Assembly (NCBI GenBank): GCA_030699545.1
Contig: JAUYMC010000375.1
Coordinates: forward strand, 1-48,556
Source: Gemmatimonadales bacterium
Lineage (GTDB): Bacteria; Gemmatimonadota; Gemmatimonadetes; Gemmatimonadales; GWC2-71-9
Direction: 5' to 3'
DNA length: 48,556 bases
Shown here: positions 3,448 through 24,482 of the stretch, piece after piece
How positions within the stretch are numbered: position 1 is the stretch's first letter
Layout: each line of letters opens with the position of its first letter
Program-made: the position numbers and the translations under genes
Notes under the pieces: generated by a model
Databases searched by the model: none
Seen by the model: only the letters and a program-made list of their open reading frames with translations
Told to the model about the DNA's origin: nothing

Positions 3448-4424
3448 CCGGCTTCCTCGCGGTTCAGGCGATCACGAAACAGTGGGCGCACACCGTCACG
3501 GTCGGGCCGATCTCCCTCGACATCGCCCGCGGCGAAATCGTCGCGCTCCTCGGCCCCTCGGGCAGCGGCAAGACGACCATGCTGCGGCTCCTCGCCGGAT
3601 TCGAGACGGCCGACAGCGGCCGGATCGTCGTGGACGGGGAGGACGTCACGGCGGCGCCGCCGGCGCGGCGCCGCTTCGGGATGGTGTTCCAACACTACGC
3701 CCTCTTTCCGCACCTCGACGTCGGTGAGAATGTCGGGTTTGGATTGACCGGGAGCCGGGAGCGGGGAGCCGCTGCGGCGAAGGTGGCGGAGGCCCTGGCG
3801 CTCGTGGACCTCGCCGGCTTCGAGCGGCGCAAAGTCCACGAGCTGTCGGGCGGACAGCAGCAGCGCGTCGCGCTGGCGCGCGCGCTCGCGCCGGAACCGC
3901 GGGTCCTGCTGCTCGACGAGCCGCTGTCGAATCTCGATCCCGCGCTGCGCGAGCGCACGCGCCGCGAGCTGCGCCAGCTGATCCAGCGCGTCGCCATCAC
4001 CACCGTCTTCGTCACGCACGAGCAGGAAGAGGCGTTCGACTTGGGAGACCGCGTGGCGGTCCTGAACGCGGGCCGGCTCGAGCAGGCCGGCGTGGCCGAC
4101 GAGCTGTATGAGCATCCGGCGTCGCTCTTTGTCGCTTCGTTCGTGGGCCGGGCGAACGTGTTTCACGGTGCGGCGGCCCGTGCGCTGGGGGGCCGGGACG
4201 GGCAGCTCGTGGTCGCCCGTCCGGAACGGCTGCGCTTCGCGGCGAGCGGGCTCGCCGGCGTCGTGCGCGAGCGGCGGTACACGGGACCGGCCGCCTTCTA
4301 TCTGGTGGAGAGCGGCGACGGCGCGCGGTTCGAGGTCATGGCGGAGCCCGGCGCGGCGCGCGTGGGCGACCCGGTGCACGTGACGGCGAGCAGCCTGCTG
4401 ACGTTTCCGGACGGCGCGCCGTGA
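3444..4424 (+). CDS. ABC transporter ATP-binding protein (FbpC/PotA-like with C-terminal TOBE-like region)
   Basis: Walker A GPSGSGKT, signature LSGGQQQR, Walker B LLLDEP. GTG at 3444 overlaps the SBP stop (GTGA). The track ORF 2931..4424 is an in-frame upstream extension lying inside the SBP gene. Confidence 0.85.
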   Translation: MTGFLAVQAITKQWAHTVTVGPISLDIARGEIVALLGPSGSGKTTMLRLLAGFETADSGRIVVDGEDVTAAPPARRRFGMVFQHYALFPHLDVGENVGFGLTGSRERGAAAAKVAEALALVDLAGFERRKVHELSGGQQQRVALARALAPEPRVLLLDEPLSNLDPALRERTRRELRQLIQRVAITTVFVTHEQEEAFDLGDRVAVLNAGRLEQAGVADELYEHPASLFVASFVGRANVFHGAAARALGGRDGQLVVARPERLRFAASGLAGVVRERRYTGPAAFYLVESGDGARFEVMAEPGAARVGDPVHVTASSLLTFPDGAP

Positions 4425-6046
4425 GCCGGCGCGCCGCGGAGCTGACGGCGCTCGCGCTCACGCTGCTGCTCGCCTGGATCGTGCTGTATCCGATTCTCAT
4501 CGTGGCGACGGACGCCGCCGACGCGAGCGCGCTCCGCGCCTTCGTGTCCCGACCCGGGGAATGGGCCGCCCTCTGGGCGAGCATCTGGATCTCGCTCGCG
4601 AGCGTCGCGCTGGCCGCCGCCATCGGCATCCCGCTGGCCTTCCTCTTCGAGTGGTTCGAATTCCCGGGACGCAAGACGCTGGGGTCGCTCGTCGCGCTCC
4701 CCGTGGTGCTGCCGCCGCTGGTGGGCGTGATCGCCTTCCTCTTCTTGTACGGCGAGTCCGGATTCATCGCCCGGGCGGTGCAGGCGCTGCTCGGGCTCGA
4801 GCGTGCGCCGTGGCGGCTGCAGGGGCCGGGCGCGATTCTCCTCGTCCACGCCTATTCGATGTACGTGTACTTCTACCTGTTCACGCGCGCGGGGCTGGCC
4901 CGCCTCGACGTCTCGATGCTGGAAGCGGCGCAGGCGCTCGGCGCCGGGCGCCGGGCCACCCTGAGGCGCGTGGTCCTCCCCCTCGTGCGGCCCGCCCTCG
5001 TCGGGGCGGCGATCCTGACGTTCATGACCGCGCTCGGCTCCTTCAGCGCACCGTACATCTTCGGCGGCGGCTTTCGCGTCATGACGACGCAAATCGTCGC
5101 CACCAAACTGAACGGCGATCTGCCCCTCGCGATGGTCGAGACGCTCGCGCTCGCGCTCGTGGCGATCGTGGGCCTCGTGCTGCTGCGCCGCACCGAGGGC
5201 GACGCCATTCTCGTGGCCTTGGGGAAGGGGACCGCACCCCGTCCGCGGCCGATCCGGCGGCGCGGGATCCGCCTCGCGGCCGCGGCGGCGGGATGGGGAC
5301 TCGCCGTGGTGTTGTTGCTGCCCCATCTCACGTTGGGGTTGGTGTCGCTCGTCCCCTACGGCGCCTGGACCACCGAGATCATTCCGCCGGTCCTGAACTT
5401 CGAGAATTACCGCCGCCTGTTCAGCGAGGCCGAGCGGCTGCGGCCGCTGCTCAACTCGGTCTGGATGGCGGCCGTCAGCACGGCGGCGGCGGTGATCCTG
5501 GCGCTCCTCGCCGGCTGGCTCATCGTCCGCCGGCGCGTGGCGGTGCGGCGGGCGATCGAGGGCCTGCTGGCACTGCCGTGGGCACTGCCGGGAACCGTGT
5601 TCGCGATCGCGCTCGCCACGACGTTCAGTGTGAACGCCCCCGCCCGGTTGCGCCTCGTGCTGGTCGGCACGGCGGTGATCCTCCCCCTCGCCTATCTCGT
5701 GCGCGCGCTGCCCCTCGCCGGCCGCGGGCTGCTCGCCGCCTATCGCCAGATGGATCCCGCGCTCGAAGAGGCCGCCGCGAGTCTGGGCGCCGGCCGCTGG
5801 CGCACCGTGACCCGCGTGACGTTGCCGCAGCTCAAGCCGGGGCTCGCCGCCGGCGCGAGCCTCGCCTTCGTCGCGGCGCTCGGCGACATCGTCGCCTCGA
5901 TCGTGCTCTACACCTACGAGACCCGTCCCATCGCGATCGAGATCCTGTCGAGTCTGCGCCTCTCGGAAACGGGCGTCGCCGCCGCGTTCGGCGTCGTGCT
6001 GATGGTCGTGAGCGCGCTCGTGCTCGGCGTCGGAGCGAGACGATGA
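4421..6046 (+). CDS. ABC transporter permease, fused double-TMD (FbpB-like)
   Basis: 541 aa and highly hydrophobic, with two repeated permease halves (each with an EAA-like loop: LEAAQALGAGR and LEEAAASLGAGR). The start overlaps the ATPase stop. Confidence 0.85.
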   Translation: MSRRAAELTALALTLLLAWIVLYPILIVATDAADASALRAFVSRPGEWAALWASIWISLASVALAAAIGIPLAFLFEWFEFPGRKTLGSLVALPVVLPPLVGVIAFLFLYGESGFIARAVQALLGLERAPWRLQGPGAILLVHAYSMYVYFYLFTRAGLARLDVSMLEAAQALGAGRRATLRRVVLPLVRPALVGAAILTFMTALGSFSAPYIFGGGFRVMTTQIVATKLNGDLPLAMVETLALALVAIVGLVLLRRTEGDAILVALGKGTAPRPRPIRRRGIRLAAAAAGWGLAVVLLLPHLTLGLVSLVPYGAWTTEIIPPVLNFENYRRLFSEAERLRPLLNSVWMAAVSTAAAVILALLAGWLIVRRRVAVRRAIEGLLALPWALPGTVFAIALATTFSVNAPARLRLVLVGTAVILPLAYLVRALPLAGRGLLAAYRQMDPALEEAAASLGAGRWRTVTRVTLPQLKPGLAAGASLAFVAALGDIVASIVLYTYETRPIAIEILSSLRLSETGVAAAFGVVLMVVSALVLGVGARR

Positions 6047-7245
6047 GGCGGCTCGCGGTGCTGATGGCGGTCTGCTTCCTCGACATGCTCGGGCTGATGC
6101 TCGTGGCGCCGCTGATGCCGTTCTACGCCACACGCATGCAGGCCGCCGAGTGGATGGTGGGCCCGCTGATCGCCTCCTTCGCGGTCGCGCAGCTCGTTTC
6201 CTCCCCCATCTGGGGAAAGTTTTCCGATCGCTATGGACGGCGGCCGGCGATGCTCATCGGCCTCGCCGCCTCCGCGTTCGCCTACATCATCTTCGGATTT
6301 GCGAACAGTCTCGTGCTCCTCTTCGCCTCACGCATCGTGCAGGGGTTGGGGGGCGGGACGACCGGGGTGGCCCAGGCCTACGTGGCCGACACGATGGCCC
6401 CGGCGGAGCGCGCCAAGGCGCTGGGCTGGATCTCCGCCGCGACGAGCGCCGGAGTGATGATCGGCCCCGTCATCGGCTCGGTGGCGCGGCGGTTCGGCAC
6501 CGAAGTGCCCGGTCTGGTCGCCGCCGTCCTCATGTTGCTGTGTGTGGCGTTCGCCTGGCGCTGGCTGCCGGAGTCACGCGTCCGCCACACGCATTCGCCG
6601 AGCGGCCAGCAGCTGCCGCCGGGGGGGGGCCGCTCCGTCCGGCGCGCGCTGTGGGAGATCATCGCCCACCCCGCGACGCCGGCGCACCGCGTGATCTGGA
6701 TTTACGTGGTCGGCATGCTCGCGCTCAACGTGGTCATCGGCGTGTTGGCGCTGTATCTCATGAACGTCTACTTCGTCACGGAGGAGACGATCGGCTACTT
6801 CTTCACGGTGTTCGGCGTCGTGGGCGTCCTGATGCGCATCTCGCTCGTGGGGTGGTTCAACGCCCGATTCGGCGAGATCCGGACGATGCAGATCGGCACC
6901 GTCTGTCTGATGCTCGGGCTCGCCTTGATGCCGCTGCCCGCGGCGCTGTTCGGGGGCGCGGCGGCGCTGTCGCTGTTCATCGTGTTCATGATGCTCGTGC
7001 CCATCGGCACGGCGCTGCTGTTCCCGGCGTCGACGTCGCTCGTGAGCCAGCGCGTCGAGCGGCACGAGCAGGGGCTGGTGATGGGCGCGCAGCAGACGTT
7101 CCGGGGCATCATGAGCATCGTCGGCCCCATCGGCGCGACGGTCACCTTCGCGGCGTGGGGCCACGGCGTGCCGTTCCTGCTGGCGGCGGCGATCGTGGGG
7201 ATCGCGGCCGCGCTGGCGTTCCGCGAACGCTCGCCGCTACTTTGA
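6043..7245 (+). CDS. MFS transporter (DHA1 drug/H+ antiporter-like)
   Basis: ATG at 6043 overlaps the permease stop (ATGA). MFS motif A GKFSDRYGRRP, about 12 hydrophobic segments. The track ORF 4561..7245 is an in-frame upstream shadow extension. Confidence 0.85.
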   Translation: MRRLAVLMAVCFLDMLGLMLVAPLMPFYATRMQAAEWMVGPLIASFAVAQLVSSPIWGKFSDRYGRRPAMLIGLAASAFAYIIFGFANSLVLLFASRIVQGLGGGTTGVAQAYVADTMAPAERAKALGWISAATSAGVMIGPVIGSVARRFGTEVPGLVAAVLMLLCVAFAWRWLPESRVRHTHSPSGQQLPPGGGRSVRRALWEIIAHPATPAHRVIWIYVVGMLALNVVIGVLALYLMNVYFVTEETIGYFFTVFGVVGVLMRISLVGWFNARFGEIRTMQIGTVCLMLGLALMPLPAALFGGAAALSLFIVFMMLVPIGTALLFPASTSLVSQRVERHEQGLVMGAQQTFRGIMSIVGPIGATVTFAAWGHGVPFLLAAAIVGIAAALAFRERSPLL

Positions 7246-7250
7246 AGGCC

Positions 7251-8843
7251 ATGACCCTCATTCCCTTGCTCGTGCTGTCCGCGCTGGGTGGCGGCGATGG
7301 CCGAGCGGCGCCGCCCCGCCCCAGGCTCGTCGTCGTGATCACGATCGATCAGTTCCGTCCCGATTACTTCGAGCGGTGGAAGCCGCAGATCACGGGCGGA
7401 CTGTTTCAACTCCTGAACGAAGGCGCGGTGTTCAGCGAGGGCTATCAGGACCACGCGGCCACCGAGACGGCGCCGGGCCACGCGACGATTCTCTCGGGTC
7501 TCTGGCCGGCCCATAACGGGATCCTCCGGAACAACGCAGGCGTGCAGGACTCGACCGCGCCGCTGCTGGTCGCGACCAACGGACCGGGCGCGTCCCCCCG
7601 GCGCTTTCGCGGCACTACGCTGTTCGACTGGCTCAAGGCGGTGGACCCGGCGGCGCGGGCGCTGTCGGTCAGCCGCAAGGACCGCGGCGCGATTCTGCCG
7701 ATCGGTCACGCGAAACAGCAGGTCTACTGGTATCAATCGGGCATTTTCACGACGAGCCGCTATTACGCCGACTCGCTGCCGGCCTGGGTGCGCGCGTTCA
7801 ACGCCCGCGGCCTCCCCTTCAAGGCCGCGGGAACGGCGTGGACCCTGCTGCTCCCCGACAGCGCGTACCAAGAGGAAGACAACGAACCCTGGGAGAACCG
7901 CGGACGCGATATCGTCTTTCCCCATCGCTATCCGGTGGATACGGCGCGCGCGGCGAGCATGGTTGCGAACACGCCGGCGATCGATTCGCTGACGCTGCTC
8001 TTCGCGCTGGAAGGGCTCGAGACTTTGCGGCTGGGCCACCGCAGCAACGGCACCGATCTGCTGGCGGTCAGCCTCTCGGCGACCGACGCCGTCGGGCACT
8101 CCTACGGTCCCGACTCCCGGGAAGTCCACGACCAGGTGCTCCGGCTCGATCGGTATCTCGGCTGGTTCCTGAAGCGCGTCACGGACCGCGTGGGACGCGA
8201 CAACGTCGTCATCGTGCTGACCGCCGACCATGGCGTGACGCCGCTGCCCGAGCGGGTGCGCGCCAAGACCGGCACGCAGGTCTATCGCGTGCTGCTGGAT
8301 ACGCTCGTCACCGCGGTAAACCGCGAGCTCGACCGCCTCGCCGGTGGGGGGGGCGCGTCGCGCGAGTGGCTGAGCTTCGACAGCGGGATGCTGTTTCTCC
8401 AGGACAACGGCCGCTTTGCGGCGATGAGCCTCAACACCGACAGCATCATCGACGCCGTCGCCGCGCGGATCCGCGCGGTGCCGGGCGTCGCGCGCGCGGA
8501 CCAGCCGGCGGATCTCGCGCGCGCCGATACGGTCTCCGATCCCGTGGCCCGCCGCTGGATCCACCATATCCCCGCGGACGCGGGCATCGTGCTGGCGGTG
8601 ACGCCGCACCCGGGGTCGATCTGGGACATCCCCAACGTCCCGATCGCGATGCACGGCCATCCCAGCGAGGACGATGCGCATGTCCCGATCATCCTCTGGG
8701 GCCGGGGCGTGAAGCGGGGGACGTACGCGGGCCGCATGAACACCGTGGACATCGCCCCCACGTTGGGGCAGCTGTTGGGGGTGACGCCGTTGTCGCTCAT
8801 CGATGGGCACGCGCGGACCGACGCCCTCGTGCCGAGGGATTAG
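7251..8843 (+). CDS. Secreted alkaline-phosphatase-superfamily enzyme, nucleotide pyrophosphatase/phosphodiesterase (NPP)-like
   Basis: ATG at 7251 and a signal-like N-terminus. ITIDQFRPDYF and TETAPGHATILSGLWPAHNGI match the NPP metal site and Thr-nucleophile motifs. LTADHGV lies near the C-terminal metal site. Confidence 0.8.
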   Translation: MTLIPLLVLSALGGGDGRAAPPRPRLVVVITIDQFRPDYFERWKPQITGGLFQLLNEGAVFSEGYQDHAATETAPGHATILSGLWPAHNGILRNNAGVQDSTAPLLVATNGPGASPRRFRGTTLFDWLKAVDPAARALSVSRKDRGAILPIGHAKQQVYWYQSGIFTTSRYYADSLPAWVRAFNARGLPFKAAGTAWTLLLPDSAYQEEDNEPWENRGRDIVFPHRYPVDTARAASMVANTPAIDSLTLLFALEGLETLRLGHRSNGTDLLAVSLSATDAVGHSYGPDSREVHDQVLRLDRYLGWFLKRVTDRVGRDNVVIVLTADHGVTPLPERVRAKTGTQVYRVLLDTLVTAVNRELDRLAGGGGASREWLSFDSGMLFLQDNGRFAAMSLNTDSIIDAVAARIRAVPGVARADQPADLARADTVSDPVARRWIHHIPADAGIVLAVTPHPGSIWDIPNVPIAMHGHPSEDDAHVPIILWGRGVKRGTYAGRMNTVDIAPTLGQLLGVTPLSLIDGHARTDALVPRD

Positions 8844-13290: not shown

Positions 13291-14338
13291 CGGCGACCCC
13301 CGCCCAGCTGTCCCGGCCGCCGCGCGAGTAGCGCGCGTCCCACAAGAACACCCGCAGGCCCCCTCCTTCGCGATGCACCGAATCGACGTCGGCGACCAGG
13401 AAGCGGGCGAAGTGCGCGATGGCGCGACCTTCCGGCGTCTCGCGAACGGCCCGCTGCACGGCGGGGGCATCGAGATGCCGCGGCAGGCGCCAGTCGTCCC
13501 CCGCGACGGTATCGCGGCTCGCAGACATCCCCTCCCACGTGAACGGCCACCCCGCGTCGGTGAGCGCGGCCCACGACGCGTCCGGTCCGAAGCGCCGCTG
13601 GGCCGTCTCGCGAATCTCCGCTTTGCGGAACTGCGCCACGATGCCCTGGCTGCCTGAGTAGAGCGCCAGCACGAGCAGCGCGAGTGCGGCGGCGCGGCGG
13701 CGGGCGACGGGACCGAACCAGTGGCGCACCCAGCCGACGAGCAGGAGCGCGATGATGGCGAAGTACAGCGCCACGATCCAGGGCGCGATGACGTTGGCCG
13801 TGCGCACCACCAGGTAGGTCATGAGTCCCACCGTGAGCAGCACGGCGGTCAGCGGACGCCAGTGGCGCTCACTGCCCCAGGCGAGCGCCGTCAAGGGCAG
13901 CACCCAGAAGAGCACGTCCACGATGGCCACCCAGTCGCCGTAGTACCAGCTGTCGTTCCACGGCAGGAACGGGCGTAACCCGTACGATCCCTGCCAATCC
14001 ATGAACGGATGACTGAAGACGGCGACCGCGATCGCGGTGGTGAGCGCTCCCCAGGGCGGGACGCGGCCGCCACCGCGCACCCGCGTCCACGCGCGCGCGC
14101 CCAGGCCGATCAGGAGCGTCAGCGCCACCGTTTCGACGACGGCGCCGAGCAGCGAATGGGTGATGCCGCGGTGCAGCATCAGGTACGCCGCACGCGGGCC
14201 CGGGAGTCCGATGAACAGCTCGGTCCAATCGGGCGCGTTCGCCGCGACGGCGCCGATCAACCCGGCGCGGGCGACGTGAGGATCGGCGGTCGCGCGGGCG
14301 AGCGCGGCGCCGACGAGTGCGTGGGCGAGGTTATCCAT
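13157..14338 (-). CDS. Membrane-bound metal-dependent hydrolase, YdjM/DUF457-like, with extra C-terminal domain
   Basis: N-terminal MDNLAHALVGAAL...HRGITHSLL and several TM helices fit the YdjM/DUF457 pattern. The last ~38 codons (13157-13273) are low-complexity with depressed GC3, so the functional C-terminus is doubtful. Confidence 0.7.
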   Translation of the reverse strand: MDNLAHALVGAALARATADPHVARAGLIGAVAANAPDWTELFIGLPGPRAAYLMLHRGITHSLLGAVVETVALTLLIGLGARAWTRVRGGGRVPPWGALTTAIAVAVFSHPFMDWQGSYGLRPFLPWNDSWYYGDWVAIVDVLFWVLPLTALAWGSERHWRPLTAVLLTVGLMTYLVVRTANVIAPWIVALYFAIIALLLVGWVRHWFGPVARRRAAALALLVLALYSGSQGIVAQFRKAEIRETAQRRFGPDASWAALTDAGWPFTWEGMSASRDTVAGDDWRLPRHLDAPAVQRAVRETPEGRAIAHFARFLVADVDSVHREGGGLRVFLWDARYSRGGRDSWAGVAVSLDEGRGRSIPSPDARSSCGAPAGNGARPDRAAPSCGAARPGW

Positions 14339-14395
14339 CGCTCCACGATCGCCTCACACCTCGCGGGCCGTCCAGGGCAACCGTACTTTGGAGCC

Positions 14396-16345
14396 GTGCC
14401 CTACCTGAAGCTGGTCGAGCCGGCACGCGGGCGAGTCACCGAAGCGCGCGACAGCGTGATTCGCTTCGGCCGCGATCCCGAGGCGAGGGTGCGCCCCGAC
14501 GGTGATGCGGCGCAGGTCGTGTCCACGCGCCACGCCGAGCTGCGCGCGGAGGCGGCCGGCTGGCTGCTGGTCGATCTCGGCAGCCGCAACGGCACCTATC
14601 TCAATGGAACGCGCGTCCCCGCTCCAGGGGCGCGCGTGGCTGTCGGCGACACGATTCGCCTCGGCGAATCAGGACCCGAGTACCAGGTGGCGGCGGTGAC
14701 GGAAGGGCCGGCCGCCACAGTTCCCGAGCAGCCGGCGATTCCCGACCGGCCGGCCGAAGTCCGGTCCTACGGCGTCACACTGCTCGCGACCACGACCGGG
14801 CGGCGCTATGAGGCGCGTGGCACCCGCATTCGGCTGGGCCGCGGTCGTGAGTGCGAGGTGCAGCCGGTCGAAGCGGACGACACGATCGTCTCGCGGGTCC
14901 ACGCCGAGCTGACGGTGGGTCCCGGCGGCGGGCTCGTCATTCGTGACGCCGAGAGCAAGAACGGCACGTTCCTGAACGGCGAGCGCATCACACGCGCGAT
15001 GCCCGTCCGCCTGGCCGACAAAATCATGCTCGGGCAGGGCGGGCCGGTACTGCTCGTCGAGGGCATGGGGACGGCCCCGCACAAGGTGGTCGCGCGGCCG
15101 CATGCCGGCCTGGGCCAGCAGACCGTCATCGGCCTCATCGGCCAGGCGCTGGCGAAAGCCAGGGAGGAGCGCCGGCGCGGCGGTCGCGGCTCGACCGCGT
15201 TCATGCGCGCGGTCGCCGACGAAGTGGGGAAGGACTCACGCCGCAAGATGCGCTGGCTGACCTCGCTCGTGATCGTGCTGGTGCTGCTGCTCGGCGGGGG
15301 GGTGTACGGCGTGTACTGGGCCCTGTCGCGCCAAGTGGCCGATACCGAGCGGGCGCTACGCTCGTCGGAAGACTCGGCGCGCGCCGAAACGGATCGGCTA
15401 CGGCGCGAGTTGGCGGAGGCGCGGGCGGCAGCGGCGCCGGCCTCCCAGGTCGAGCTGTTGCGCGGGCAGCTCGAGGCGGCGCAAACGCGCACCACCGCGC
15501 TGCAGGCCTCCCTGGAACGGGCGCAACAGGCGCTCGGCCAGCAACTCGCCGCGGGCGAAACGCGGCGCGAAGAGGCACGGCGCGATCTCGAGCGCATGCG
15601 CGAACAGCTCGCCGCCGCCGAGCAGCGGGCGCCGTCGCCGAGTCTCATCGACAGCCTGCGCCGAGCCGTCGCCGCGGCCGAGACCCGTACCGCGAGTCTC
15701 GACGCCAAGATGCGCGCGATCCGCGGCACGGACTTCGCCGGGCTGGCGCAGCAGCACCAGGGAGCGGTCGGGTTGATCACCGTGGCGCTGGACGGGAGCC
15801 GCTACGACGGCACCGGCTTCGTCATCAGCCCGGACGGCTACATGCTCACGAACTGGCATGTCGTCGCCGATTCGGCGCACGCGGGGCCGGATACGATGTG
15901 GGTGACGATGGCCGATCAGTCACAGGCCCGGGCCGCCGAAGTGATCGCCACCTCGCGCGAGCGCGACATCGCGCTGATCAGGATTCGCGGATACCAGGGA
16001 TCGCATCTGCCGTCGATCGATTGGGCGGGCACCAAGGCGCGGCAGGGCGAACCGGCGGCGCTCATCGGCTACCCGGCAGGGTCGGGATTCGCGCGCGACC
16101 GGGGCTCCGTGGTGCGCACGTCGATGACGGCCGGCATCCTGTCGCGCGTGACGCTGGACCTCATTCAGTTCGACGGCATGACGACAGGTGGCTCCTCAGG
16201 GAGCCCCGTGTTCAATGCGGATGGCGACGTGATCTCGGTGCATCGGGCGGGACTGCGGCAGGGACCGGGCTTTGCGCTCTCGGTTCCCGTGAAGTACGCG
16301 ATTCCCCTCATGCCGCCGGCGCTGCGCCAGCGGCTGGGGCTCTAG
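14396..16345 (+). CDS. Double-FHA / single-TM / coiled-coil / trypsin-like (S1C-type) serine protease
   Basis: GTG at 14396 preceded by GGAG. Two FHA cores (FGRD...STRHAEL...GSRNGTYLNG and LGRG...SRVHAEL...ESKNGTFLNG). TM WLTSLVIVLVLLLGGGVYGVYWAL. A long Ala/Glu/Arg/Gln coiled coil. Protease triad context TNWHVV, RDIALIRI, GGSSGSPVF. The track ORF 14009.. is an upstream extension. Confidence 0.85.
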   Translation: MPYLKLVEPARGRVTEARDSVIRFGRDPEARVRPDGDAAQVVSTRHAELRAEAAGWLLVDLGSRNGTYLNGTRVPAPGARVAVGDTIRLGESGPEYQVAAVTEGPAATVPEQPAIPDRPAEVRSYGVTLLATTTGRRYEARGTRIRLGRGRECEVQPVEADDTIVSRVHAELTVGPGGGLVIRDAESKNGTFLNGERITRAMPVRLADKIMLGQGGPVLLVEGMGTAPHKVVARPHAGLGQQTVIGLIGQALAKAREERRRGGRGSTAFMRAVADEVGKDSRRKMRWLTSLVIVLVLLLGGGVYGVYWALSRQVADTERALRSSEDSARAETDRLRRELAEARAAAAPASQVELLRGQLEAAQTRTTALQASLERAQQALGQQLAAGETRREEARRDLERMREQLAAAEQRAPSPSLIDSLRRAVAAAETRTASLDAKMRAIRGTDFAGLAQQHQGAVGLITVALDGSRYDGTGFVISPDGYMLTNWHVVADSAHAGPDTMWVTMADQSQARAAEVIATSRERDIALIRIRGYQGSHLPSIDWAGTKARQGEPAALIGYPAGSGFARDRGSVVRTSMTAGILSRVTLDLIQFDGMTTGGSSGSPVFNADGDVISVHRAGLRQGPGFALSVPVKYAIPLMPPALRQRLGL

Positions 16346-16361: not shown

Positions 16362-16664
16362 CTAGTTGCGGGAGTAGTCGATCGTCACGACCATCGCGGG
16401 CCGGTCGACGGGACGCGAGATCGAGACCTGCGCTACTGTCGTGACAGTAGTAGAAACAGTTGGCCGATCCGCGACCGCCTGAGTGATCGCGCCCCTGGCC
16501 GCCTGTAGGGCATTGGCACTGGTGCGGGTATCCACGACGGTGGCCGTTGCTTGCAGCGTGCCACGCGCTTGGGCTTCTGCGGTGCCCGGCGTCAGTGAGG
16601 CCACGACGAGGGCGACACTCAGGATCCCCGCGATTTTCAGAACCGGCCAGACATGAGCGTTCAT
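16362..16664 (-). CDS. Small secreted protein (100 aa) with pilin-like N-terminal strand
   Basis: ATG at 16664 (MNAHVWPVLKIAGILSVALVVASLTPGTAEAQA is signal-peptide-like). The mature N-terminus TLQATATVVDT resembles the N-terminus of the adjacent DUF4402-like subunit (NITATATVQTP). Ends ...MVVTIDYSRN. Confidence 0.6.
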   Translation of the reverse strand: MNAHVWPVLKIAGILSVALVVASLTPGTAEAQARGTLQATATVVDTRTSANALQAARGAITQAVADRPTVSTTVTTVAQVSISRPVDRPAMVVTIDYSRN

Positions 16665-16980: not shown

Positions 16981-17478
16981 ATGCGCAACGTCTCGAAGCT
17001 GACCCTGGCTGCTCTCGTGCTCGCCTTTGGCGTCACGACGCTCCAGGCCCAGACCAATAGCGCCAATATCACGGCGACGGCGACGGTCCAGACGCCGATC
17101 AACGTGGTGGGCGCCCAGCAGTTGAACTTTGGGAACGTGTTCCCCGGCGTAAACAAGTCCGTCGCCGCGACCGATCTGACGAATGGCGGTCGCTTCGATG
17201 TGACGGGCCAGGCCAGCGCCCCGGTCAGCGTTTCCTTTACCTTGCCTGCCACGCTTGCGTCGGGCGCCAACACCATGCCGATTGACACCTACACGGGTGT
17301 GCATGCCGATAACGCCGCGCAGACCGGCGGCGTCGCGTTCAACCCCGTGAGCGGCGCGAGCCCCACGCTGAGCGCGTCCGGCGAGCTGTTCGTCTGGGTG
17401 GGTGCGCGCGCGGTCCCGGCGACCAACCAGGCGCAGGGCGTGTACACGGCGAGCATCATCATGACGGTGGTCTACTAA
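16981..17478 (+). CDS. DUF4402-like secreted fibre subunit A (candidate major subunit)
   Basis: 165 aa with a signal peptide ending TLQA. N-terminal alternating strand ITATATVQTPINV, then LNFGNV, VSFTLP, FVWVG, and a C-terminal GVYTASIIMTVVY. The layout is as I recall it for DUF4402 / spore-coat-U-like pilins. Confidence 0.8.
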   Translation: MRNVSKLTLAALVLAFGVTTLQAQTNSANITATATVQTPINVVGAQQLNFGNVFPGVNKSVAATDLTNGGRFDVTGQASAPVSVSFTLPATLASGANTMPIDTYTGVHADNAAQTGGVAFNPVSGASPTLSASGELFVWVGARAVPATNQAQGVYTASIIMTVVY

Positions 17479-17505
17479 CCCCGTTCGTGGCGTCGAGCTG
17501 AGAGC

Positions 17506-17542
17506 GCGCCGGCAGAGGGATGACAGTTCCCTCTGCCGGCGC
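17506..17542 (+). promoter_or_regulatory. Perfect 15-bp GC-rich stem-loop between subunit genes A and B
   Basis: GCGCCGGCAGAGGGA (17506-17520), loop TGACAGT, then TCCCTCTGCCGGCGC (17528-17542). No U-tract follows. Lies in the only sizeable gap (84 nt) of the operon. Confidence 0.7.
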
Positions 17543-17562
17543 AGTCACAAGTGGAGGCGGCG

Positions 17563-18030
17563 ATGCGTGGGATGATCGGTCTCGTGGTAGGGGCAGGGTT
17601 GCTGGCAGCGCCGCTCGCGGCGCAGGGCCGGCCACTGACCACCTCGGGCGTTCGTGGCCTGACCTTCGGCGCGGTCCTGCCCGGGGTCCCCCTGGTCGTC
17701 ACCCGCACCGACCCCGCGTTGAGCGGGCAGCTGGACATTCGCGGCCCCAACCGCCAGCAGATCCTGTTGTCGTTTACGCTGCCCCTCGTCATGACGGGCC
17801 CCGCGGGTGCGCAGCTGCCGTTGGTGTTCGGCTCGAGTGACGCCGGCTACTCCGAATCACAGGCGATCGGCAGCCAGATCGGTTTCGATCCCAAACAGTC
17901 CTTCACCGCGACCCTGGCGAATAATGGCCGCGGCTCGGTGTTCATCGGCGGCACCGCCAACGCCGCGGCGAATCAGCGTGCCGGGGCCTATACCGCGACC
18001 CTCACGCTCACCGTGACGGTGCTGCCATGA
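17563..18030 (+). CDS. DUF4402-like secreted fibre subunit B (lacks N-terminal extension)
   Basis: ATG at 17563, 5 nt after GGAGG. Signal peptide ...PLAAQ. LTFGAV starts only ~10 residues after the predicted cleavage site. LSFTLP, FIGG, GAYTATLTLTVTVLP. Confidence 0.8.
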   Translation: MRGMIGLVVGAGLLAAPLAAQGRPLTTSGVRGLTFGAVLPGVPLVVTRTDPALSGQLDIRGPNRQQILLSFTLPLVMTGPAGAQLPLVFGSSDAGYSESQAIGSQIGFDPKQSFTATLANNGRGSVFIGGTANAAANQRAGAYTATLTLTVTVLP

Positions 18031-18863
18031 GGCGGGGCGTCTGGTTGCTCGCCGCCGGCATGGTGCTCGGTCGACCGGCGCCGGGGCAGGGCGTCATGGT
18101 CGCGCCGCACGCGGTGCACATCGATCACCGCGTGCGCAGCGGGTCCGTGCTCCTCTACAATCCGGGGACCGAGCCGGTCGAAGTCACGATCTCGACGCTC
18201 TTCGGATACCCGACGACCGACTCGACGGGGCGGATCATGCTGCACACGGTCGACGTCCCCGATTCGACGATGCCGTCGGCGCTGGCGTGGCTCCAGGCCT
18301 TCCCGCGCCGCCTCACCGTCGCGCCGCTCGAGCGCCAGACGATCCGGCTGCTCGCCCGTCCACCCGCCGCGCTCGCGGACGGCGAGTACTGGGTGCGCCT
18401 CGTGATCGCGGCCAAGGCCGGCCAGGTTCCCGTCACCGGGGTCCAGGACACGACCGCGATTCAGATCGGTCTCACCCTCGAAGTGCGGACGATCATCGGT
18501 GTGAACTACCGCAAGGGCCCCGTGTCGACCGGCGTGGGGATTTCCGATCTGCGCGCACAGGTGATCGGGGATTCTCTCATCACCTGGAGCCGGCTCGAGC
18601 GCCGCGGCAACGCCGCGTACGTGGGAATGGTGCGGGCGACCCTGGTGGACTCGACCGGAGCGACGCGGGCGGCCTTCCAGACACCGCTGGGCGTGTACTT
18701 CACGCTGCAGCCGCGCCTCGGCACGGCCCTCGGCGGCGGCAGTCTGCCACGCGGGCGTTATTGGCTGCGCTACGAAGTCGTGACGGAGCGCGAGGACCTC
18801 GATCCGGCGGTGGTGCTTCCCGCGCCGGCCGTCCGCGATTCCGTGCAGCTGGTGGTGCCCTGA
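18027..18863 (+). CDS. Periplasmic PapD-like (two Ig-domain) fibre chaperone
   Basis: 278 aa with a signal-like N-terminus. V.V.P..V.....RSGSVLLYNPGTEPVEV and AFPRRLTVAPLERQTIRLL...DGEYWVRLVI match the N-domain pattern of chaperone-usher chaperones. ATGA overlap with subunit B. Confidence 0.7.
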   Translation: MRRGVWLLAAGMVLGRPAPGQGVMVAPHAVHIDHRVRSGSVLLYNPGTEPVEVTISTLFGYPTTDSTGRIMLHTVDVPDSTMPSALAWLQAFPRRLTVAPLERQTIRLLARPPAALADGEYWVRLVIAAKAGQVPVTGVQDTTAIQIGLTLEVRTIIGVNYRKGPVSTGVGISDLRAQVIGDSLITWSRLERRGNAAYVGMVRATLVDSTGATRAAFQTPLGVYFTLQPRLGTALGGGSLPRGRYWLRYEVVTEREDLDPAVVLPAPAVRDSVQLVVP

Positions 18864-19384
18864 TGCGGCGTGCCACGCGCGCCTTCGCGGCGGTGCTGGG
18901 GCTGGCCTTGCCGGGGCGGGTCCTCGCGCAGGGCACGGCCGCGATTCCGGCCGAAGCCGTCGTGGTGACGGTCGGGATGGCCGTCACGACGCTACGCGAC
19001 CTGGGCTTCGGCAGCGTCGTGACCGGTGTGTCCACCACGGTCCAGCCCGTCGCGGCGGGCGCCGGCGCGTGGCAGGTCAGCGGCAATCCCAATGCGTTCG
19101 CGAGCATCACGTTCACGCTGCCGACGGAGCTGACGAACATCCAGGCGCTGCCGGGATCCACCATGCCCATTGCGTTCGGCGCCGGGGCCGCGCTGTGGCG
19201 GCGCGCGACGAACGATCCGGCGGGCGCGACCCCGTTCGATCCCGCGACGGGGGCGACGGGGCGGTTTGGCCCGCCGCCCAATCCCAACCTCTACATCTGG
19301 GTTGGCGGCACCGTGAGCCCCGCGGTGACGGCCAAGCCGGGGATCTATCAGGGCACGATCGTCGTGTCGCTGTCCTACCTCTAA
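18863..19384 (+). CDS. DUF4402-like secreted fibre subunit C
   Basis: ATG at 18863 overlaps the chaperone stop (TGATG). Signal peptide ...VLAQ. N-terminal strand AEAVVVTVGMAV, then LGFGSV, ITFTLP, YIWVGG, GIYQGTIVVSLSYL. The track ORF 18287.. is an upstream extension. Confidence 0.8.
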   Translation: MRRATRAFAAVLGLALPGRVLAQGTAAIPAEAVVVTVGMAVTTLRDLGFGSVVTGVSTTVQPVAAGAGAWQVSGNPNAFASITFTLPTELTNIQALPGSTMPIAFGAGAALWRRATNDPAGATPFDPATGATGRFGPPPNPNLYIWVGGTVSPAVTAKPGIYQGTIVVSLSYL

Positions 19385-19387
19385 GCG

Positions 19388-21940
19388 GTGAACGGGCACG
19401 CGCGACGGGCGCTGCTGTTCACCGTCCTCGTGAGCATCAGCATCCCCGAGGCGCGGGCCCAAGACATTTCCTCAGACAGCGCACCAGAGCCGATCCTGAT
19501 GGAGCTGCGCATCGGACGGCTGGCGCAGGCCACCGTCCAGGCGTTCCGCGTCCGGTCCGAAGTCCTGGTTCCCCTCACGCAGTTCTTCCAGCTCGCCGAA
19601 ATCCGCCATCGCGTGTCGCCTGAGGGGCGACTGGATGCCGCGGTGGACCCGGGGAACCGGCAGATTCTCATCGACGTGCGCAGTGACACGATGATTTTCG
19701 GCGCGCACCGGGTCCGGCTCGAGCCCGAGTTCCGTCTGTTCGCCGAGAACGAGCTGTATGTCGGGGCGGAGCGGCTCGGGGATCTGCTCGGGCTGCGCTT
19801 CGCCGTCGATTGGGCCGAGCTGAGCGTGACGATCGTGGACGCGACGTCGCTCCCGATCGCGCGACGGCTGCGCCGGGAAAGCGCGCGGGCGGCCTATCTC
19901 CGCCTGCCCAGCGCGGCGCGCGCCGACGTGGTCCTGGGGCTCGAGCGCCCCGCGTGGGACGGCGTGACCGTCGACTATTCGTTCTTCTCCCCCTCCGCCG
20001 ATCCCGTCGCGGGCGCGACGTATGCCTTTGGCCTCGGCGCGGACCTCGGCGGGGGCTCGCTGGAGGTGCTGGCGCAGAGCGTGGGCCCGGCGTCCGACGC
20101 ACGGGCCAACGTCGAAGGGTCGTGGACGGGCGTCTGGCGCGAGCAGCGGTGGGTGAAGCAGCTGCGGCTCGGCACGATCGCCGCGACCGGCCCGCGCGGG
20201 CGCATCGTGCGCGGCGCAGCGGTGACGAACGCGCCGTTCGTCCGTCCCTCGCTGGTGGGGGCGCTGCGCTATGCCGGCCGGTTGGACCCGGGGTGGTCGG
20301 TGGAGGCCTATCGCGGCGGCGACCTGGTGGCGTTCGATTCGGCCGACGCCGACGGCGGGTTCGCGATCGATCTGCCCGTACGCTACGGGGAAAATCCCGT
20401 GGACTTCATCGCGTACGGGCCGTTCGGAGAAATCCGCGAGTTCAACCGCACCTACCGGGTCCTGAGCGATCTCCTGCCCGCGGGGCAATTCGAGTACGCC
20501 CTTTCCGGCGGGCACTGTCCCGGCCGGTCGGCGGGGCCGTGCGCGGCGGCGGCGAACGCGGACCTGCGCTACGGCGTGTCGCGGCGCGCCACCCTGCAGG
20601 CGGGCGCTGAGCGATTCTGGCGCGACAGTCTGGCCGACCGGGTCCATCCGTATGCCGTGCTCACGGCCAATCCCAGCAATGCATGGGCGTTTCAGGGCGA
20701 GGTGGTCGGCGCGGCGTTCGCGCGCGGCGTGATGCGGTACGAGCCGTCGGTCGATCTCCGGCTCGAAGGGGAGTACACGCACTTCGCCCGCGATTCACAG
20801 CCGGTGCTGATCGTGCCGGGCCGGCGCGCGCAGTGGTCGGTGAGCGGGTTTCTCCGTCCCCTGCCGTCGCGCGGCTTCTTTTTTTTCGACGGACGCGTCG
20901 AGCGAATCACCACGGATGCGGGCGCGGTCACGCGCACCCGGGTGGGCGCGTCGCTGCAGACGGCCGCCATCCGGCTGCTCCCCTACGTCCGCACCGAGCA
21001 CGACGTCGCAACGCGCGCCTTCGCCGGCGCCAACGCGTTCATCCTGCCGCGCTTCCTGCCGCAGATGTTCCTGCGCACGACCACCGAGGTGGCTCGGCGC
21101 GCGGGAGTGATGTCGTGGTCGGTCGTCGCCGCGCGGTCGCTGGGGCGCGGCATCCGGATCGAGCTGGGAACGCAGTGGGTGCGAGGCGATGCCGGCGTGA
21201 CCTACAACCTGTCGGTGACGTCGTCCCTGCCGGCGGTGCGGGCCGTGACGTCCGTCTCGGCGCCGCCGGGCCGTGCGGTGAACGGCACGCAGTTCGTGCA
21301 GGGGTCGGTTCTCTGGGACCGTCAGGGCGGGCGGCTCGGGGTCGCGCCGGGGCCTGCATTGGAGCGCTCCGGACTCGCCGGTTCCGTCTTCATGGATGAG
21401 AACGCGAACGGCCGGCGCGACCTCGGAGAACCCGGGATCGCGCGCGTGCGCCTGCTCGTCGGCTCGCTGGGCACGATGACCGACTCCGGCGGCGCCTATC
21501 GCATCTGGGACCTCCTGCCCTTCGAGCCGGTCATCGTCGCGCTCGACTCCATGACGCTCGAGTCGCCGCTGCTGGTGCCGCTGTACGCGCGGGCGAGCAT
21601 CGTGCCCGGGCCCAACCGCTTTCGCACGCTCGATATCCCGGTGGTGCAGGCAGGCGTGATCGAAGGGCGCGTCGTCCGGGCCGGTACGACGCGAGGCGTC
21701 GGCGGCGTCACGCTGATCCTCACCGAGCGCCGCAGCGGCGTGCGGCGGACGCTGGTCACGTTCACCGACGGCGGGTTCTATTTGCTGGGTGTCAAACCGG
21801 GCGACTACGAGCTGGCGGTCCGGGAAGACGTCCTCGAGGCGCTTGCGGTCGATGCGGCGCCGCTGCGCTTCACGCTCGCCCCGACGCCCGAGGGCGTCGG
21901 GCGCTCGGATCTCGAGCTGCGGCTTACGCCGAGGTTCTAG
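19388..21940 (+). CDS. Outer-membrane usher-like protein with two C-terminal CarboxypepD_reg/SdrD-B-like beta-sandwich domains
   Basis: 850 aa. GTG 3 nt after subunit C. Signal peptide ...PEARAQ. Long middle region with alternating beta-strand-like pattern rich in G/Y/R/A. C-terminus GSVFMDENANGRRDLGEPGI...GGAYRIWDL and GVIEGRVV...GGFYLLGVKPGDYELAV. Confidence 0.65.
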   Translation: MNGHARRALLFTVLVSISIPEARAQDISSDSAPEPILMELRIGRLAQATVQAFRVRSEVLVPLTQFFQLAEIRHRVSPEGRLDAAVDPGNRQILIDVRSDTMIFGAHRVRLEPEFRLFAENELYVGAERLGDLLGLRFAVDWAELSVTIVDATSLPIARRLRRESARAAYLRLPSAARADVVLGLERPAWDGVTVDYSFFSPSADPVAGATYAFGLGADLGGGSLEVLAQSVGPASDARANVEGSWTGVWREQRWVKQLRLGTIAATGPRGRIVRGAAVTNAPFVRPSLVGALRYAGRLDPGWSVEAYRGGDLVAFDSADADGGFAIDLPVRYGENPVDFIAYGPFGEIREFNRTYRVLSDLLPAGQFEYALSGGHCPGRSAGPCAAAANADLRYGVSRRATLQAGAERFWRDSLADRVHPYAVLTANPSNAWAFQGEVVGAAFARGVMRYEPSVDLRLEGEYTHFARDSQPVLIVPGRRAQWSVSGFLRPLPSRGFFFFDGRVERITTDAGAVTRTRVGASLQTAAIRLLPYVRTEHDVATRAFAGANAFILPRFLPQMFLRTTTEVARRAGVMSWSVVAARSLGRGIRIELGTQWVRGDAGVTYNLSVTSSLPAVRAVTSVSAPPGRAVNGTQFVQGSVLWDRQGGRLGVAPGPALERSGLAGSVFMDENANGRRDLGEPGIARVRLLVGSLGTMTDSGGAYRIWDLLPFEPVIVALDSMTLESPLLVPLYARASIVPGPNRFRTLDIPVVQAGVIEGRVVRAGTTRGVGGVTLILTERRSGVRRTLVTFTDGGFYLLGVKPGDYELAVREDVLEALAVDAAPLRFTLAPTPEGVGRSDLELRLTPRF

Positions 21941-24482
21941 CGGCCTCGCCGGCGACTTCGTACAGCAGCGTTTCGAGCTTGGCGAAATCGTACGGCTTGA
22001 CGAGCGCGGGGACGCCGGCCTCGCGCAGCAGCGCCGCCGTATCGGGGGCGAATGTGTCGCCCGTCGAAAAAATGAGACGGTTGACCATCGCCGGGTACTC
22101 GCGGCGCAGGTGCTCGAGGAACTCGCGGCCGCTCATCCCCGGCATGCGGACATCCGAAACGATGACGTCGAAGTGCATGCTCCCGAGGGCTTTCAATCCG
22201 TCGGCGCCGTCGATGACCCCCATGGCATGCAGGCCGCGACGCTTCAGGAAGGTGAGGACCGCGCGGCGCAGCCCGTCCTCGTCGTCGATCAGCAATATGG
22301 ATAGCCGCTCCCCCGCCGCGGCCCCCGGGGCCGCCGTGGTCTCCGTCACCGCCGGCATCGGCGGGGGCGTGACGCGTTGGCGTGTGCGGGCGTCGCGCGG
22401 CAGCTCGACGCAGAACAGCGCGCCCCCCCTCGCGGGATCGCTGTCCAGCCAGACGCGCCCGCCGTGGTCGTTTGCAATTCCGTAACAGATGGACAGGCCG
22501 AGCCCGGTGCCGGCCCCTTCGGGTTTGGTCGTGAAAAACGGATCGAAGATCTTGTCGGCCATCTCCGCGGGCACGCCGGGACCCGAGTCGGCCAGCTCGA
22601 GCCGCACGCGATCGTCGAAGGTCGACGTCCGGATCGTGATCGTCCGGCGCGTGTCCACCGTGACCAGCGCCTGCTCGGCGTTGATGAGGAGATTCAGCAG
22701 CATCTGCTGCACCTCGGAGCCGTTGGCCCACGCTTTGGGATCGCCTTCCTCCAGCTCGAGATTCACGGTGATGTTGAGGGTCGTGAGGTGGTAGGAGCGG
22801 AGGGCGTAGGTGCGTCGGACGATGTCGTTCAGGTCGACGAGCGTGCGATCTGTGCCGCCCACGCGGGCGAACGCGAGCAGATTGCCGGTGATCCGTCCGA
22901 TGCGCGTGGCCTCGTCGTAGATCATCTGAATCGTGTCGCGCTGCTCGCCGGTGAGGGTGTCGAGGAGCAGCGTCTGGGCGAAGCCCGAGATGATGGCCGC
23001 CGGATTGTTGATCTCGTGCGCCACGCCGCTGACCAACTGCCCCAGCGCCGCGAGCTTCTCCGCCTGCTGCAGCTGCGATTGCGTGCGGCGCTGCTCGGTG
23101 ATGTCCCGCGCGAGGGCCAGCACCTTGGGGATGCTGCCCCCAACGCTCCCCCCATCACGCACCGGCGCGTAGAGCACCGCGCTCGTGCCGTCGCTGCCGT
23201 CGGCCCGGCGAAACGGCACCTCGAAGCGCTGCAGCTCCCCGGCGAACGCAGCCGCGAGGTTTTCGCGGGCGATACGCGCGGCCGCGGCATCGAGCCAGTC
23301 GAAGCCGCCCCCGCGCCCGCCGGAGATCAGATCCCGGCCGGCCGCGTTGTCGTCGAGGATGCGGCCGTCGCGGTCGAGCACGACGATCGCATCCGGCACC
23401 GACTCCATGACCAGGCGCAGGCTGCGCTCCGTCGACGCGGTGGCGGCCAGCGAGCTCATCAGCGAGCGGGTCTGATGCGCGACTTCGTCCTCGAGCAGAC
23501 GCGAATAGCGCCGGGCCGCGCCGAAGGAGTAGAGGACGCGCGCGCCGATGATCGCCATGCCGATCGCGATGATGACGGCGAGGTCGGGCGCGCCCGCCGG
23601 GTCGAGAATCGCGACGATCGCGAGGGCCGACATGCCCGTCAGGCCGACCAGGATCGCGACGATCCGCGCCGTGAGGCCCGAGATGGTCGCGGGCGAGTGG
23701 TGCGGCCGGAGCGCGCGGTCTCCGGCGATCGCGCCGGCCGCCCCGATCATCAGCAGGCCGGCGTCCCAGCTGAGGTCGAGCATGCCTCCGCTCGTGAAGG
23801 TCCCGCGCAGCGCCGCCGCGGCGTAGAACAGATCCCCGATCGCGAAGACGACGACCCCCGGCAGGATGAGCGACGCCGTCGCGGTCGGGAAGGCGGTGCG
23901 CCGGAGCAGCTGGATCAGCACCATCCACAGCACGGTCACACCGCCGATCGACCAGCCGATGCTGGTGAGCAGCGCGGCGAGCGGGGGAGGTCCGGCGGGA
24001 GCGAAGAGAGGATTGAGGAAAAACCGGTAGGCGAGCGCCCCGACGGTAAACGTCACCAGCACCGTGTCCAGCACCAGCTCCGGGTCGGCGCGGCGCGTCG
24101 GCTGCCCGCGCGCGAGCGACGCGAACCCGAGCAGGAAAAAGCCGTACATGCCGAGGTAGCCGACGTCGGCGAGCGACGGGTAGCCGGGCGACACGCCGCG
24201 CAGCACTTCGTGGTAAGACCACACGATCTGGCCGGCGAGAAAGGCCGCGCATCCCGCGCCGATCCAGATCCACGTGCGGCGTTCCTCGGGCACCGGCGTG
24301 CGCTGCGCCGCGCGGAAGCAGCAGAAGGCGCCGAAGGCCGATGCCCACAACCAGGCCATGTTGGCGAACAGCGTGCGGGTGTCGGGATCGAGGGGGGGGA
24401 ACGCGTACACCACGGCCATCGCCGCCAGCGACAGCGCGGCGACGCTCACCAGCACGCGGGCGGAGCGGCTCAGTCGAATCAT
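21924..24482 (-). CDS. Hybrid sensor histidine kinase (polytopic membrane sensor, PAS, HisKA, HATPase, receiver)
   Basis: 852 aa. About 9-10 N-terminal TM helices. PAS-like region. H-box [13 protein letters not shown] boxes ([24 protein letters not shown]). C-terminal receiver (LLIDDE...[13 protein letters not shown]). The 3' end overlaps the usher-like gene by 17 nt. Confidence 0.9.

Follow-up and report, generated by a model that had tools for sequence, protein, structure and literature searches.

What would the five closely spaced genes at 16981–21940 of a contig from a soil Gemmatimonadales bacterium build? The contig (GenBank assembly GCA_030699545.1, contig JAUYMC010000375.1; 48,556 nucleotides [nt], here called the window) is ~71% G+C, and its closest relatives are Gemmatimonadales metagenome-assembled genomes only. 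An earlier note, made from the sequence letters, had read the genes as a surface-fibre locus with three DUF4402-type subunits, a PapD-like chaperone and a non-canonical usher. The locus is quite probably a complete chaperone-usher pilus operon, representing a deeply diverged, widespread and unstudied branch of these systems. By profile alignment and structural modelling the chaperone and usher belong to the chaperone-usher superfamily; an incomplete subunit fold and the formation of a fibre are predicted. The genes and their predicted products, with lengths in amino acids (aa), are as follows.

16981–17478, + strand: subunit 1, 165 aa
17563–18030, + strand: subunit 2, 155 aa from the ATG at 17563 (159 aa from a GTG at 17551)
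18027–18863, + strand: predicted PapD-like chaperone, 278 aa
18863–19384, + strand: subunit 3, 173 aa
19388–21940, + strand: predicted usher, 850 aa

All five genes are on the + strand and near-abutting, and the open reading frame listing together with a reading of the junctions bears out the tight packing described earlier. The spacer after subunit 1 is 84 nt; the subunit 2 and chaperone genes overlap by 4 nt (ATGA), the chaperone and subunit 3 genes by 1 nt, and subunit 3 and the usher gene are separated by 3 nt. The last four genes thus overlap or lie 3 nt apart, which is consistent with translational coupling. The ATG at 17563 is the likelier start of subunit 2, since a GGAGG lies 5 nt before it and the GTG at 17551 falls inside that ribosome-binding site. 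Each of the five products begins with a leader that is basic, then hydrophobic, and ends in 'AQ', in line with the signal peptides previously assigned to the three small proteins. These three are paralogues, as had been proposed (BLASTP E-values of 2e-12, 1e-12 and 5e-7), and share the quoted motifs LxFG, (S/T)FTLP, hydrophobic-W/F-x-GG and a C-terminal G.Y..(T/S) strand, except that the third motif of subunit 1 reads VWVGA and lacks the second glycine.

The usher and chaperone candidates

The 850-aa protein can be divided into the following segments (residue numbers; + strand gene 19388–21940).

1–25: signal peptide
~34–150: N-terminal domain
180–265: strands 1–6
273–352: plug
368–638: strands 7–24
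~660–750: C-terminal domain 1
755–850: C-terminal domain 2

Pfam recognises only SdrD_B (666–709) and CarboxypepD_reg (758–814) in this protein, NCBIfam yields nothing for its barrel, and phmmer and hmmsearch comparisons with PDB sequences return nothing for it. An AlphaFold2 (AF2) model built on 66 orthologues (mean predicted local distance difference test score, pLDDT, of 65.9) was assigned by DSSP six strands, a compact all-beta plug, 18 further strands and two C-terminal beta-sandwiches; this is the plan of an usher, whose barrel counts 24 strands and has its plug inserted after the sixth. The N-terminal domain is beta-rich, comprises ~115 residues before the barrel, and is modelled with pLDDT values of 74–87. 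When the model is compared with the PDB using Foldseek the best 15 matches are all FimD or PapC (E 2.2e-18 to 1.4e-8); LptD follows as the second class, from E 6.5e-6, and porins are also among the lower matches.

Profile comparisons point the same way. A 9-sequence usher profile was used to search 1.84 billion cluster representatives, and 36 relatives with 27–47% identity were assembled into a diverse profile. Aligned with six Escherichia coli ushers by hhalign, this profile is co-linear with them over 591 columns (probability 94%, E 1.2e-7), with residues 193–812 of the window protein aligned to FimD 185–848, a span that takes in the barrel with its plug as well as both C-terminal domains. 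Conservation within the family is highest in the block 'LRLGD...GW.VE.YR.G.LV.FDS.D..G.F...LPV.YGENPVDFVAYGPFGE', which is aligned with the FimD strand-6-to-plug segment 'LTLGD...A.VTI.QNGY.IY...VPPGPF.I.D......GDL.VTIKEADG', and HtrE, YhcD and YehB each align singly with the profile at the plug region (E 5e-4 to 7e-3). Controls behave differently: LptD gives E 0.081 over 24 columns, BamA gives E 0.69, and mismatched profile pairs give E 0.07–0.5 over 4–15 columns. Shallow profiles (A1 and A2) aligned with single FimD and FimC sequences by hhalign yield no significance; significance with the E. coli proteins appears only when diverse profiles are used on both sides. The Pfam Usher model matches one of the 36 distant relatives, at E 0.0024.

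On this modelling and profile evidence the 850-aa protein is best described as an outer-membrane usher. The suggestion that it is an outer-membrane barrel thus stands, with the type now specified as that of a 24-stranded usher with a plug. Its description as 'non-canonical' holds insofar as the Pfam Usher model misses it; the architecture is canonical apart from the unmatched N-terminal domain. An LptD-like or other barrel identity was considered for the protein and set aside on the Foldseek ranking and the hhalign controls.

Two further features of the usher family were observed. A pair of cysteines in the loop just after the plug (C377 and C385, within 'G.C......C') is invariant in all 36 distant relatives and in all Gemmatimonadota orthologues, and probably forms a disulfide. 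Four of the 36 distant usher-like relatives (P0354 and three others) carry an extra OmpA peptidoglycan-binding domain; we know of no such fusion among characterised ushers.

The 278-aa protein has no match in Pfam, NCBIfam or PDB sequences, even when searched as a 48-sequence profile. A diverse profile of 50 orthologues (42–78% identity) aligned by hhalign with seven E. coli chaperones gives a probability of 88.5% and E 2.7e-6 over 149 columns, in which window residues 12–187 correspond to FimC 27–179; the sequence alignment is confined to domain 1. The aligned features include an A1 strand directly after the signal peptide, an 'LYNPG' turn, an F1 segment 'DGEYWxRL' (aligned with 'DRESLFxxNV'), and a long G1 segment with alternating hydrophobic residues, 'LTLEVRTIIGVxYRKG' aligned with 'LxLAxxxRIKLFYRPA', ending in 'YRKG' versus 'YRPA'. 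The invariant Pro93 is within one residue of the proline of the known chaperones that is the only invariant residue of the superfamily (PMC4654587). Arg124 is also invariant, its position falling within the F1-aligned strand, and in domain 2 Tyr245 and Arg255 are invariant by alignment of the orthologues. This arrangement may correspond to the non-classical anchor of archaic and alternative chaperones such as CsuC, in which an Arg of domain 1 strand F acts together with a Tyr and an Arg of domain 2 and the classical Arg/Lys pair is missing (PMC4654587).

The relationship to known chaperones is also seen through homologues on proteobacterial plasmids. The window profile matches the chaperone of a Polaromonas locus at E 6e-12 and that of a Sphingopyxis locus at E 3.5e-12, and in both the A1 strand keeps the classical 'TR'. 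With 25.3 bits against a threshold of 23, the Polaromonas protein passes Pfam PapD_N, and NCBI names it 'fimbria/pilus periplasmic chaperone'. Two orthologues are labelled 'P pilus assembly chaperone PapD' by the Joint Genome Institute. An AF2 model of the window protein (pLDDT 66) has two beta-sandwich domains, and ~30 of its top 50 structural matches in the PDB are chaperone-usher chaperones (including Caf1M, YadV, CfaA, SafB, CsuC, PapD and FimC, these seven at E 1e-5 to 5e-4, and also DraB, CupB2 and EcpB). Taken on these alignments and this model, the 278-aa protein is best described as a highly diverged periplasmic chaperone, and its earlier designation as PapD-like is upheld.

The DUF4402 subunits and the hairpin between their genes

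The three small proteins match Pfam DUF4402 at E 2.2e-4 (subunit 1, profile positions 9–129 of 129), 1.2e-4 (subunit 2) and 1.7e-4 (subunit 3). DUF4402 is matched by all 77 subunits examined from related loci (best E 8.4e-9), Caf1 by two of the 77, and SCPU (PF05229) by 16 of the 77, weakly (best E 0.013). The proteins were thus correctly described as DUF4402-type rather than classical fimbrial or spore-coat-U subunits, the match covering nearly the whole DUF4402 model and that to SCPU being weak. Neither the subunit profile nor a subunit N-terminal peptide matches any PDB sequence by phmmer or hmmsearch.

A resemblance to known pilins is located at the C-terminus. When the subunit profile is compared with 14 E. 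coli fimbrial subunits the C-terminal 21 residues alone align (E 1.4e-4), and this region is the C-terminal Gly...Tyr strand, which in subunit 1 reads G-x-Y-T...TVVY. In known pilins the C-terminal Gly...Tyr strand occupies the chaperone cleft.

The N-termini separate the three paralogues. The spacing from the leader 'AQ' to the FG of the LxFG motif is 25 residues in all 36 subunit 1 sequences and 25–26 in subunit 3, and is 10–14 in all 27 sequences of subunit 2. Subunits 1 and 3 have a 12–13-residue alternating N-terminal segment that is missing from subunit 2 in 27 of 27 aligned sequences. In subunit 1 it reads 'ANITATATVQT' (pattern 'SITATATVQ') and in subunit 3 'AIPAEAVVVTVG' (pattern 'ADAVVVTVG'), with small or hydrophobic residues alternating with Thr; judged from its residues, the segment has a donor-strand pattern. 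Polaromonas and the loci L091 and L092 likewise have strand-bearing paralogues beside strand-less ones, and at a Krumholzibacteria-type locus a proline-rich, charged segment takes the place of the strand in the second subunit.

The spacer after subunit 1 contains a conserved RNA element.

17506–17542, + strand: hairpin with a perfect 15 bp stem, between subunit 1 and subunit 2

The hairpin is GC-rich and occurs once within the window; the 80-nt stretch around it has a predicted folding energy of -45 kcal/mol (z-score -4.85). Among 47 distinct sequences of this intergenic spacer, 44 have a strong hairpin in the corresponding place, compensatory changes are seen in three of 14 pairs, and the stem sequence is wholly different in the most distant loci. 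It has no U-tract and so is not a canonical terminator, and it matches no Rfam family. It is a candidate attenuator or stabiliser of the mRNA that would probably raise subunit 1 over the downstream products, and enrichment of the subunit 1 message would fit subunit 1 as the major subunit.

These features suggest roles for the subunits. In chaperone-usher systems the subunit that does not donate a strand goes in first, at the tip, and subunit 2, which has no N-terminal strand, is therefore a candidate tip or initiator. Subunit 1 is a candidate major, self-polymerising shaft subunit, since its gene is first, it has a donor-like strand, and the conserved hairpin follows it. Subunit 3, which is restricted to a subclade, may be a minor adaptor or terminator.

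Conservation of the locus and its neighbours

The locus was surveyed with one genome per species, giving 200 matching stretches of which 80 loci were kept. All 80 are from Gemmatimonadota, with usher identities down to 42%, and the order subunit 1–subunit 2–chaperone–(subunit 3)–usher is constant throughout; the gene for subunit 3 is present in ~34 of the 80 and missing from the more distant ones. The usher-like family extends much further, with 2263 clusters (at 50% identity) at E <= 1e-3 and 1172 at E <= 1e-10. One cluster member is named Candidatus Krumholzibacteria, and the same four-gene core is found on the contigs of this relative and of two further relatives. On Polaromonas sp. JS666 plasmid 2 and Sphingopyxis indica pMC4, a chaperone gene and a gene for an ~895-aa protein annotated as 'carboxypeptidase regulatory-like domain-containing protein' are accompanied by one to three DUF4402 genes (a single one in Sphingopyxis); the DUF4402 subunits at these proteobacterial loci score 51–91 bits. 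With the same core present in several phyla, DUF4402 is consistently tied to the chaperone/barrel pair across at least three phyla.

The survey of gene neighbourhoods that had been proposed as a check therefore finds the core gene order held in 80 species-level Gemmatimonadota genomes and in other phyla. It also corrects the earlier emphasis on a GC-rich lineage, to which the system is not special: proteobacterial plasmids carry it too, and there the chaperone already has a fimbrial name in the NCBI annotation. No paper mentioning DUF4402, PF14352 or IPR025514 was found in the literature library searched. A Cetobacterium plasmid match to subunit 1 was rejected, having no chaperone or usher gene beside it. 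On the Polaromonas plasmid (L093), which is conjugative, the cluster lies at 903–8506 between two IS6-family transposase genes, which suggests that it moves as a composite transposon-like unit.

Three further genes lie close to the operon in the window.

16362–16664, - strand: small secreted protein, precursor of ~100 aa (start codon inferred)
14009–16345: FHA and trypsin domain protein, upstream neighbour (Pfam)
21924–24482, - strand: hybrid histidine kinase (PAS-HisKA-HATPase-receiver), convergent neighbour (Pfam)

The small gene is divergent from subunit 1, and relatives with the same position and orientation occur in more than 40 related loci, being kept in distant loci that have no FHA-protease and kinase neighbours. 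Its product has a leader with AEAQ as the last residues, a mature N-terminus, 'ARGTLQATATVVDT', that is similar to the N-terminal strand of subunit 1, and the C-terminus 'VVVTIDYSRN'. The protein has no Pfam match, and it aligns to the subunit profile at E 1.5e-4 yet with a probability of 25%. It is possible that it is an accessory of the system.

The flanking genes are as given in the earlier note, an FHA-protease upstream and a hybrid kinase overlapping the 3′ end of the usher gene. The last 17 nt of the usher gene (21924–21940) are shared with the 3′ end of the kinase gene, and the identical overlap is observed in most closely related loci (e.g. L001, L002 and L006–L016). Within Gemmatimonadales the kinase is downstream in 47 loci and the FHA-protease upstream in 26; both are absent at the Krumholzibacteria-type, Polaromonas and Sphingopyxis loci. 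The regulatory role suggested for the two is thus unproven, because they are absent from loci of other phyla, and the evidence for it stops at gene order conserved within Gemmatimonadales. The neighbours at 14009–16345 and from 24514 onward encode an FHA-FHA-trypsin-like protease, a YdjM-family membrane protein, a PGI-like protein and a GH38-like alpha-mannosidase, and these are in the same order in many Gemmatimonadales genomes and also at L092.

Assembly, rival explanations and known systems

In the proposed mechanism all five products would be exported by Sec, each having a cleavable leader recognisable in its sequence. The 278-aa chaperone, by homology, would capture each DUF4402 subunit in the periplasm, presumably lending it a strand, and would hand it to the 850-aa usher, for which the moderate-confidence model and the profile homology predict a 24-stranded plugged barrel and two C-terminal sandwiches. 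Donor-strand exchange would take place at the usher, with the N-terminal strand of an incoming subunit displacing the chaperone strand in the previous one, and would extrude a non-covalent fibre. Subunit 2 would enter first, at the tip, subunit 1 would form the shaft, and subunit 3 would have a minor part as adaptor or terminator. Such a fibre is likely to function in adhesion or biofilm formation in soil.

Several results weigh against a chaperone-usher pilus. The Pfam Usher model (PF00577) has no match to the window proteins at E <= 1, and PapD_N (PF00345) matches neither the window chaperone nor its 48 orthologues at the same threshold. The DUF4402 (PF14352) scores of the window subunits (22.3, 23.2 and 22.6 bits, with almost all of the model covered) are 2–3 bits under the gathering score of 25.2, and no window protein reaches the curated threshold of SCPU. 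In the hhalign comparison the N-terminal domain of the usher (34–150) has no aligned counterpart in the E. coli ushers, and in that of the chaperone His28 and Gly158 stand where classical chaperones have Arg8 and Lys112. The two AF2 models reach no more than moderate confidence (pLDDT 66), with template modelling (TM) scores of 0.3–0.46; those of the usher model to ushers are low (~0.3), as is expected of a multi-domain model with moderate confidence. The best matches of the chaperone model are Enterococcus WxLIP (E 2.4e-7) and Vibrio RbmA, two-domain Ig/Fn3-like proteins, which may rank first only through the generic two-sandwich shape of a model of moderate confidence. Finally, no observed fibre was found in the literature for any DUF4402 system.

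If the machinery is of the chaperone-usher type, its product could still be something other than a discrete pilus, such as a capsule- or coat-like mesh or a surface display of short oligomers, after the model of Yersinia Caf1 (F1 antigen) or the Myxococcus spore coat protein U system. Such a product would suit the small single-domain subunits with their weak SCPU and Caf1 similarity, the absence of an encoded two-domain lectin-type adhesin (subunit 2 is single-domain), and the single subunit gene of some loci, e.g. Sphingopyxis. The strict split between strand-bearing and strand-less subunits points instead to a fibre that is ordered and polar and has a defined tip, as does a hairpin that favours one subunit, and a mesh or oligomer product is considered rather unlikely. 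A more radical alternative, that the locus is not of the chaperone-usher type, would make the 850-aa protein an LptD-like or transporter barrel with a carboxypeptidase-regulatory-like domain and the other proteins Ig-like proteins of the periplasm or surface with an unrelated role. It draws on CarboxypepD_reg and SdrD_B being the only domains that Pfam names, on the LptD and porin structures among the lower structural matches, on WxLIP and RbmA leading the matches of the chaperone, and on the moderate model confidence. It is very improbable, given that ushers are ahead of LptD by 12 orders of magnitude in Foldseek, that the 591 co-linear hhalign columns shared with ushers compare with 24 for LptD (E 0.081) and with E 0.69 for BamA, and that the plug follows strand 6 as in FimD; moreover, the chaperone is linked to PapD_N through its Polaromonas homologue, and the three components are co-inherited across phyla.

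Read as a chaperone-usher pilus operon, the locus has the operon logic of the archaic Csu (CsuA/B-A-B-C-D-E of Acinetobacter baumannii) and CupE (Pseudomonas aeruginosa) systems, with the major subunit first and the minor subunits, chaperone and usher in one operon. Also shared are small subunits related to SCPU (here weakly, in 16 of 77) and a spread beyond beta- and gamma-proteobacteria; the chaperone, which by alignment is missing the classical Arg/Lys anchor and has an invariant R124 in the F1-aligned strand, may be a further parallel. Archaic systems occur in alpha- to delta-proteobacteria, Cyanobacteria and Deinococcus-Thermus (PMC4654587), and neither Gemmatimonadota nor Krumholzibacteria is among their listed hosts (PMC4654587, PMC9452303). 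The window locus differs from them in that its subunits are in DUF4402 and not SCPU, its usher and chaperone are undetected by Pfam Usher or PapD_N, the C-terminal domains of the usher score as SdrD_B and CarboxypepD_reg, and there is no CsuE-like two-domain tip adhesin, the strand-less subunit being single-domain.

Type 1 and P pili (FimA-I-C-D-F-G-H; PapD/PapC) resemble the window system in the 24-strand usher, which has its plug after strand 6 and carries two C-terminal domains, in the two Ig-like domains of the chaperone, its F1 and G1 motifs and the '...YR(P/K)' with which domain 1 closes, and in the C-terminal Gly...Tyr strand of the subunits. As in the type 1 operon, the (candidate) major pilin gene is first and is followed by an RNA element, the 3′ region of E. 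coli fimA being annotated as the small RNA FimR2. The differences from type 1 and P pili are a sequence identity of 11–13%, the loss of the Arg8/Lys112 pair in the Gemmatimonadales chaperone, subunits without the classical disulfide, and no lectin-domain adhesin. The Afa/Dr and Saf-type polyadhesins are classical (FGL) enterobacterial systems with a single-domain cap subunit that has no donor strand and a polymerising major subunit; the arrangement proposed here, with a single-domain strand-less subunit at the tip and one polymerising major subunit, is similar; a sequence relationship to them was not detected. The Polaromonas and Sphingopyxis loci provide direct homologues of all three component types, with the same usher C-terminal domains, but have one to three subunit genes in another order and no kinase or FHA-protease neighbour; they are known by pipeline annotation and none has been studied. 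The TLP-1 pond-water fibrils of the CryoSeek study and the cyanobacterial tubular pilus were considered as possible counterparts and rejected, the subunit profile having no PDB match and the gene sets in those papers being different.

A tentative extension is that DUF4402 systems constitute a seventh major chaperone-usher clade outside alpha, beta, gamma, kappa, pi and sigma, and an overlooked class of soil adhesins. Such a clade, itself doubtful at present, would have its own pilin family and recruited or remodelled usher C-terminal domains, some with an OmpA anchor. Equally speculative is the part that it would give in Gemmatimonadales to the small secreted protein, which with its donor-strand-like 'GTLQATATVVD' might cap or regulate polymerisation.

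The system is expected to work like archaic and classical chaperone-usher systems, so that a familiar mechanism is anticipated; what the locus adds is breadth and annotation, not a new principle. If the reading is true, DUF4402 gains a testable function as a pilin, and many entries named 'carboxypeptidase regulatory-like domain-containing protein' (in a family of 2263 clusters at 50% identity) would be ushers. Surveys of chaperone-usher systems that are based on Pfam Usher and PapD_N would overlook the whole branch. The prediction is directly testable because culturable hosts, Polaromonas sp. JS666 and Sphingopyxis indica, carry the system on plasmids. The chaperone-usher pathway would be extended to Gemmatimonadota and Krumholzibacteria, phyla that are abundant in soil and sediment, are hard to culture, and have surface structures that are essentially unknown so far.

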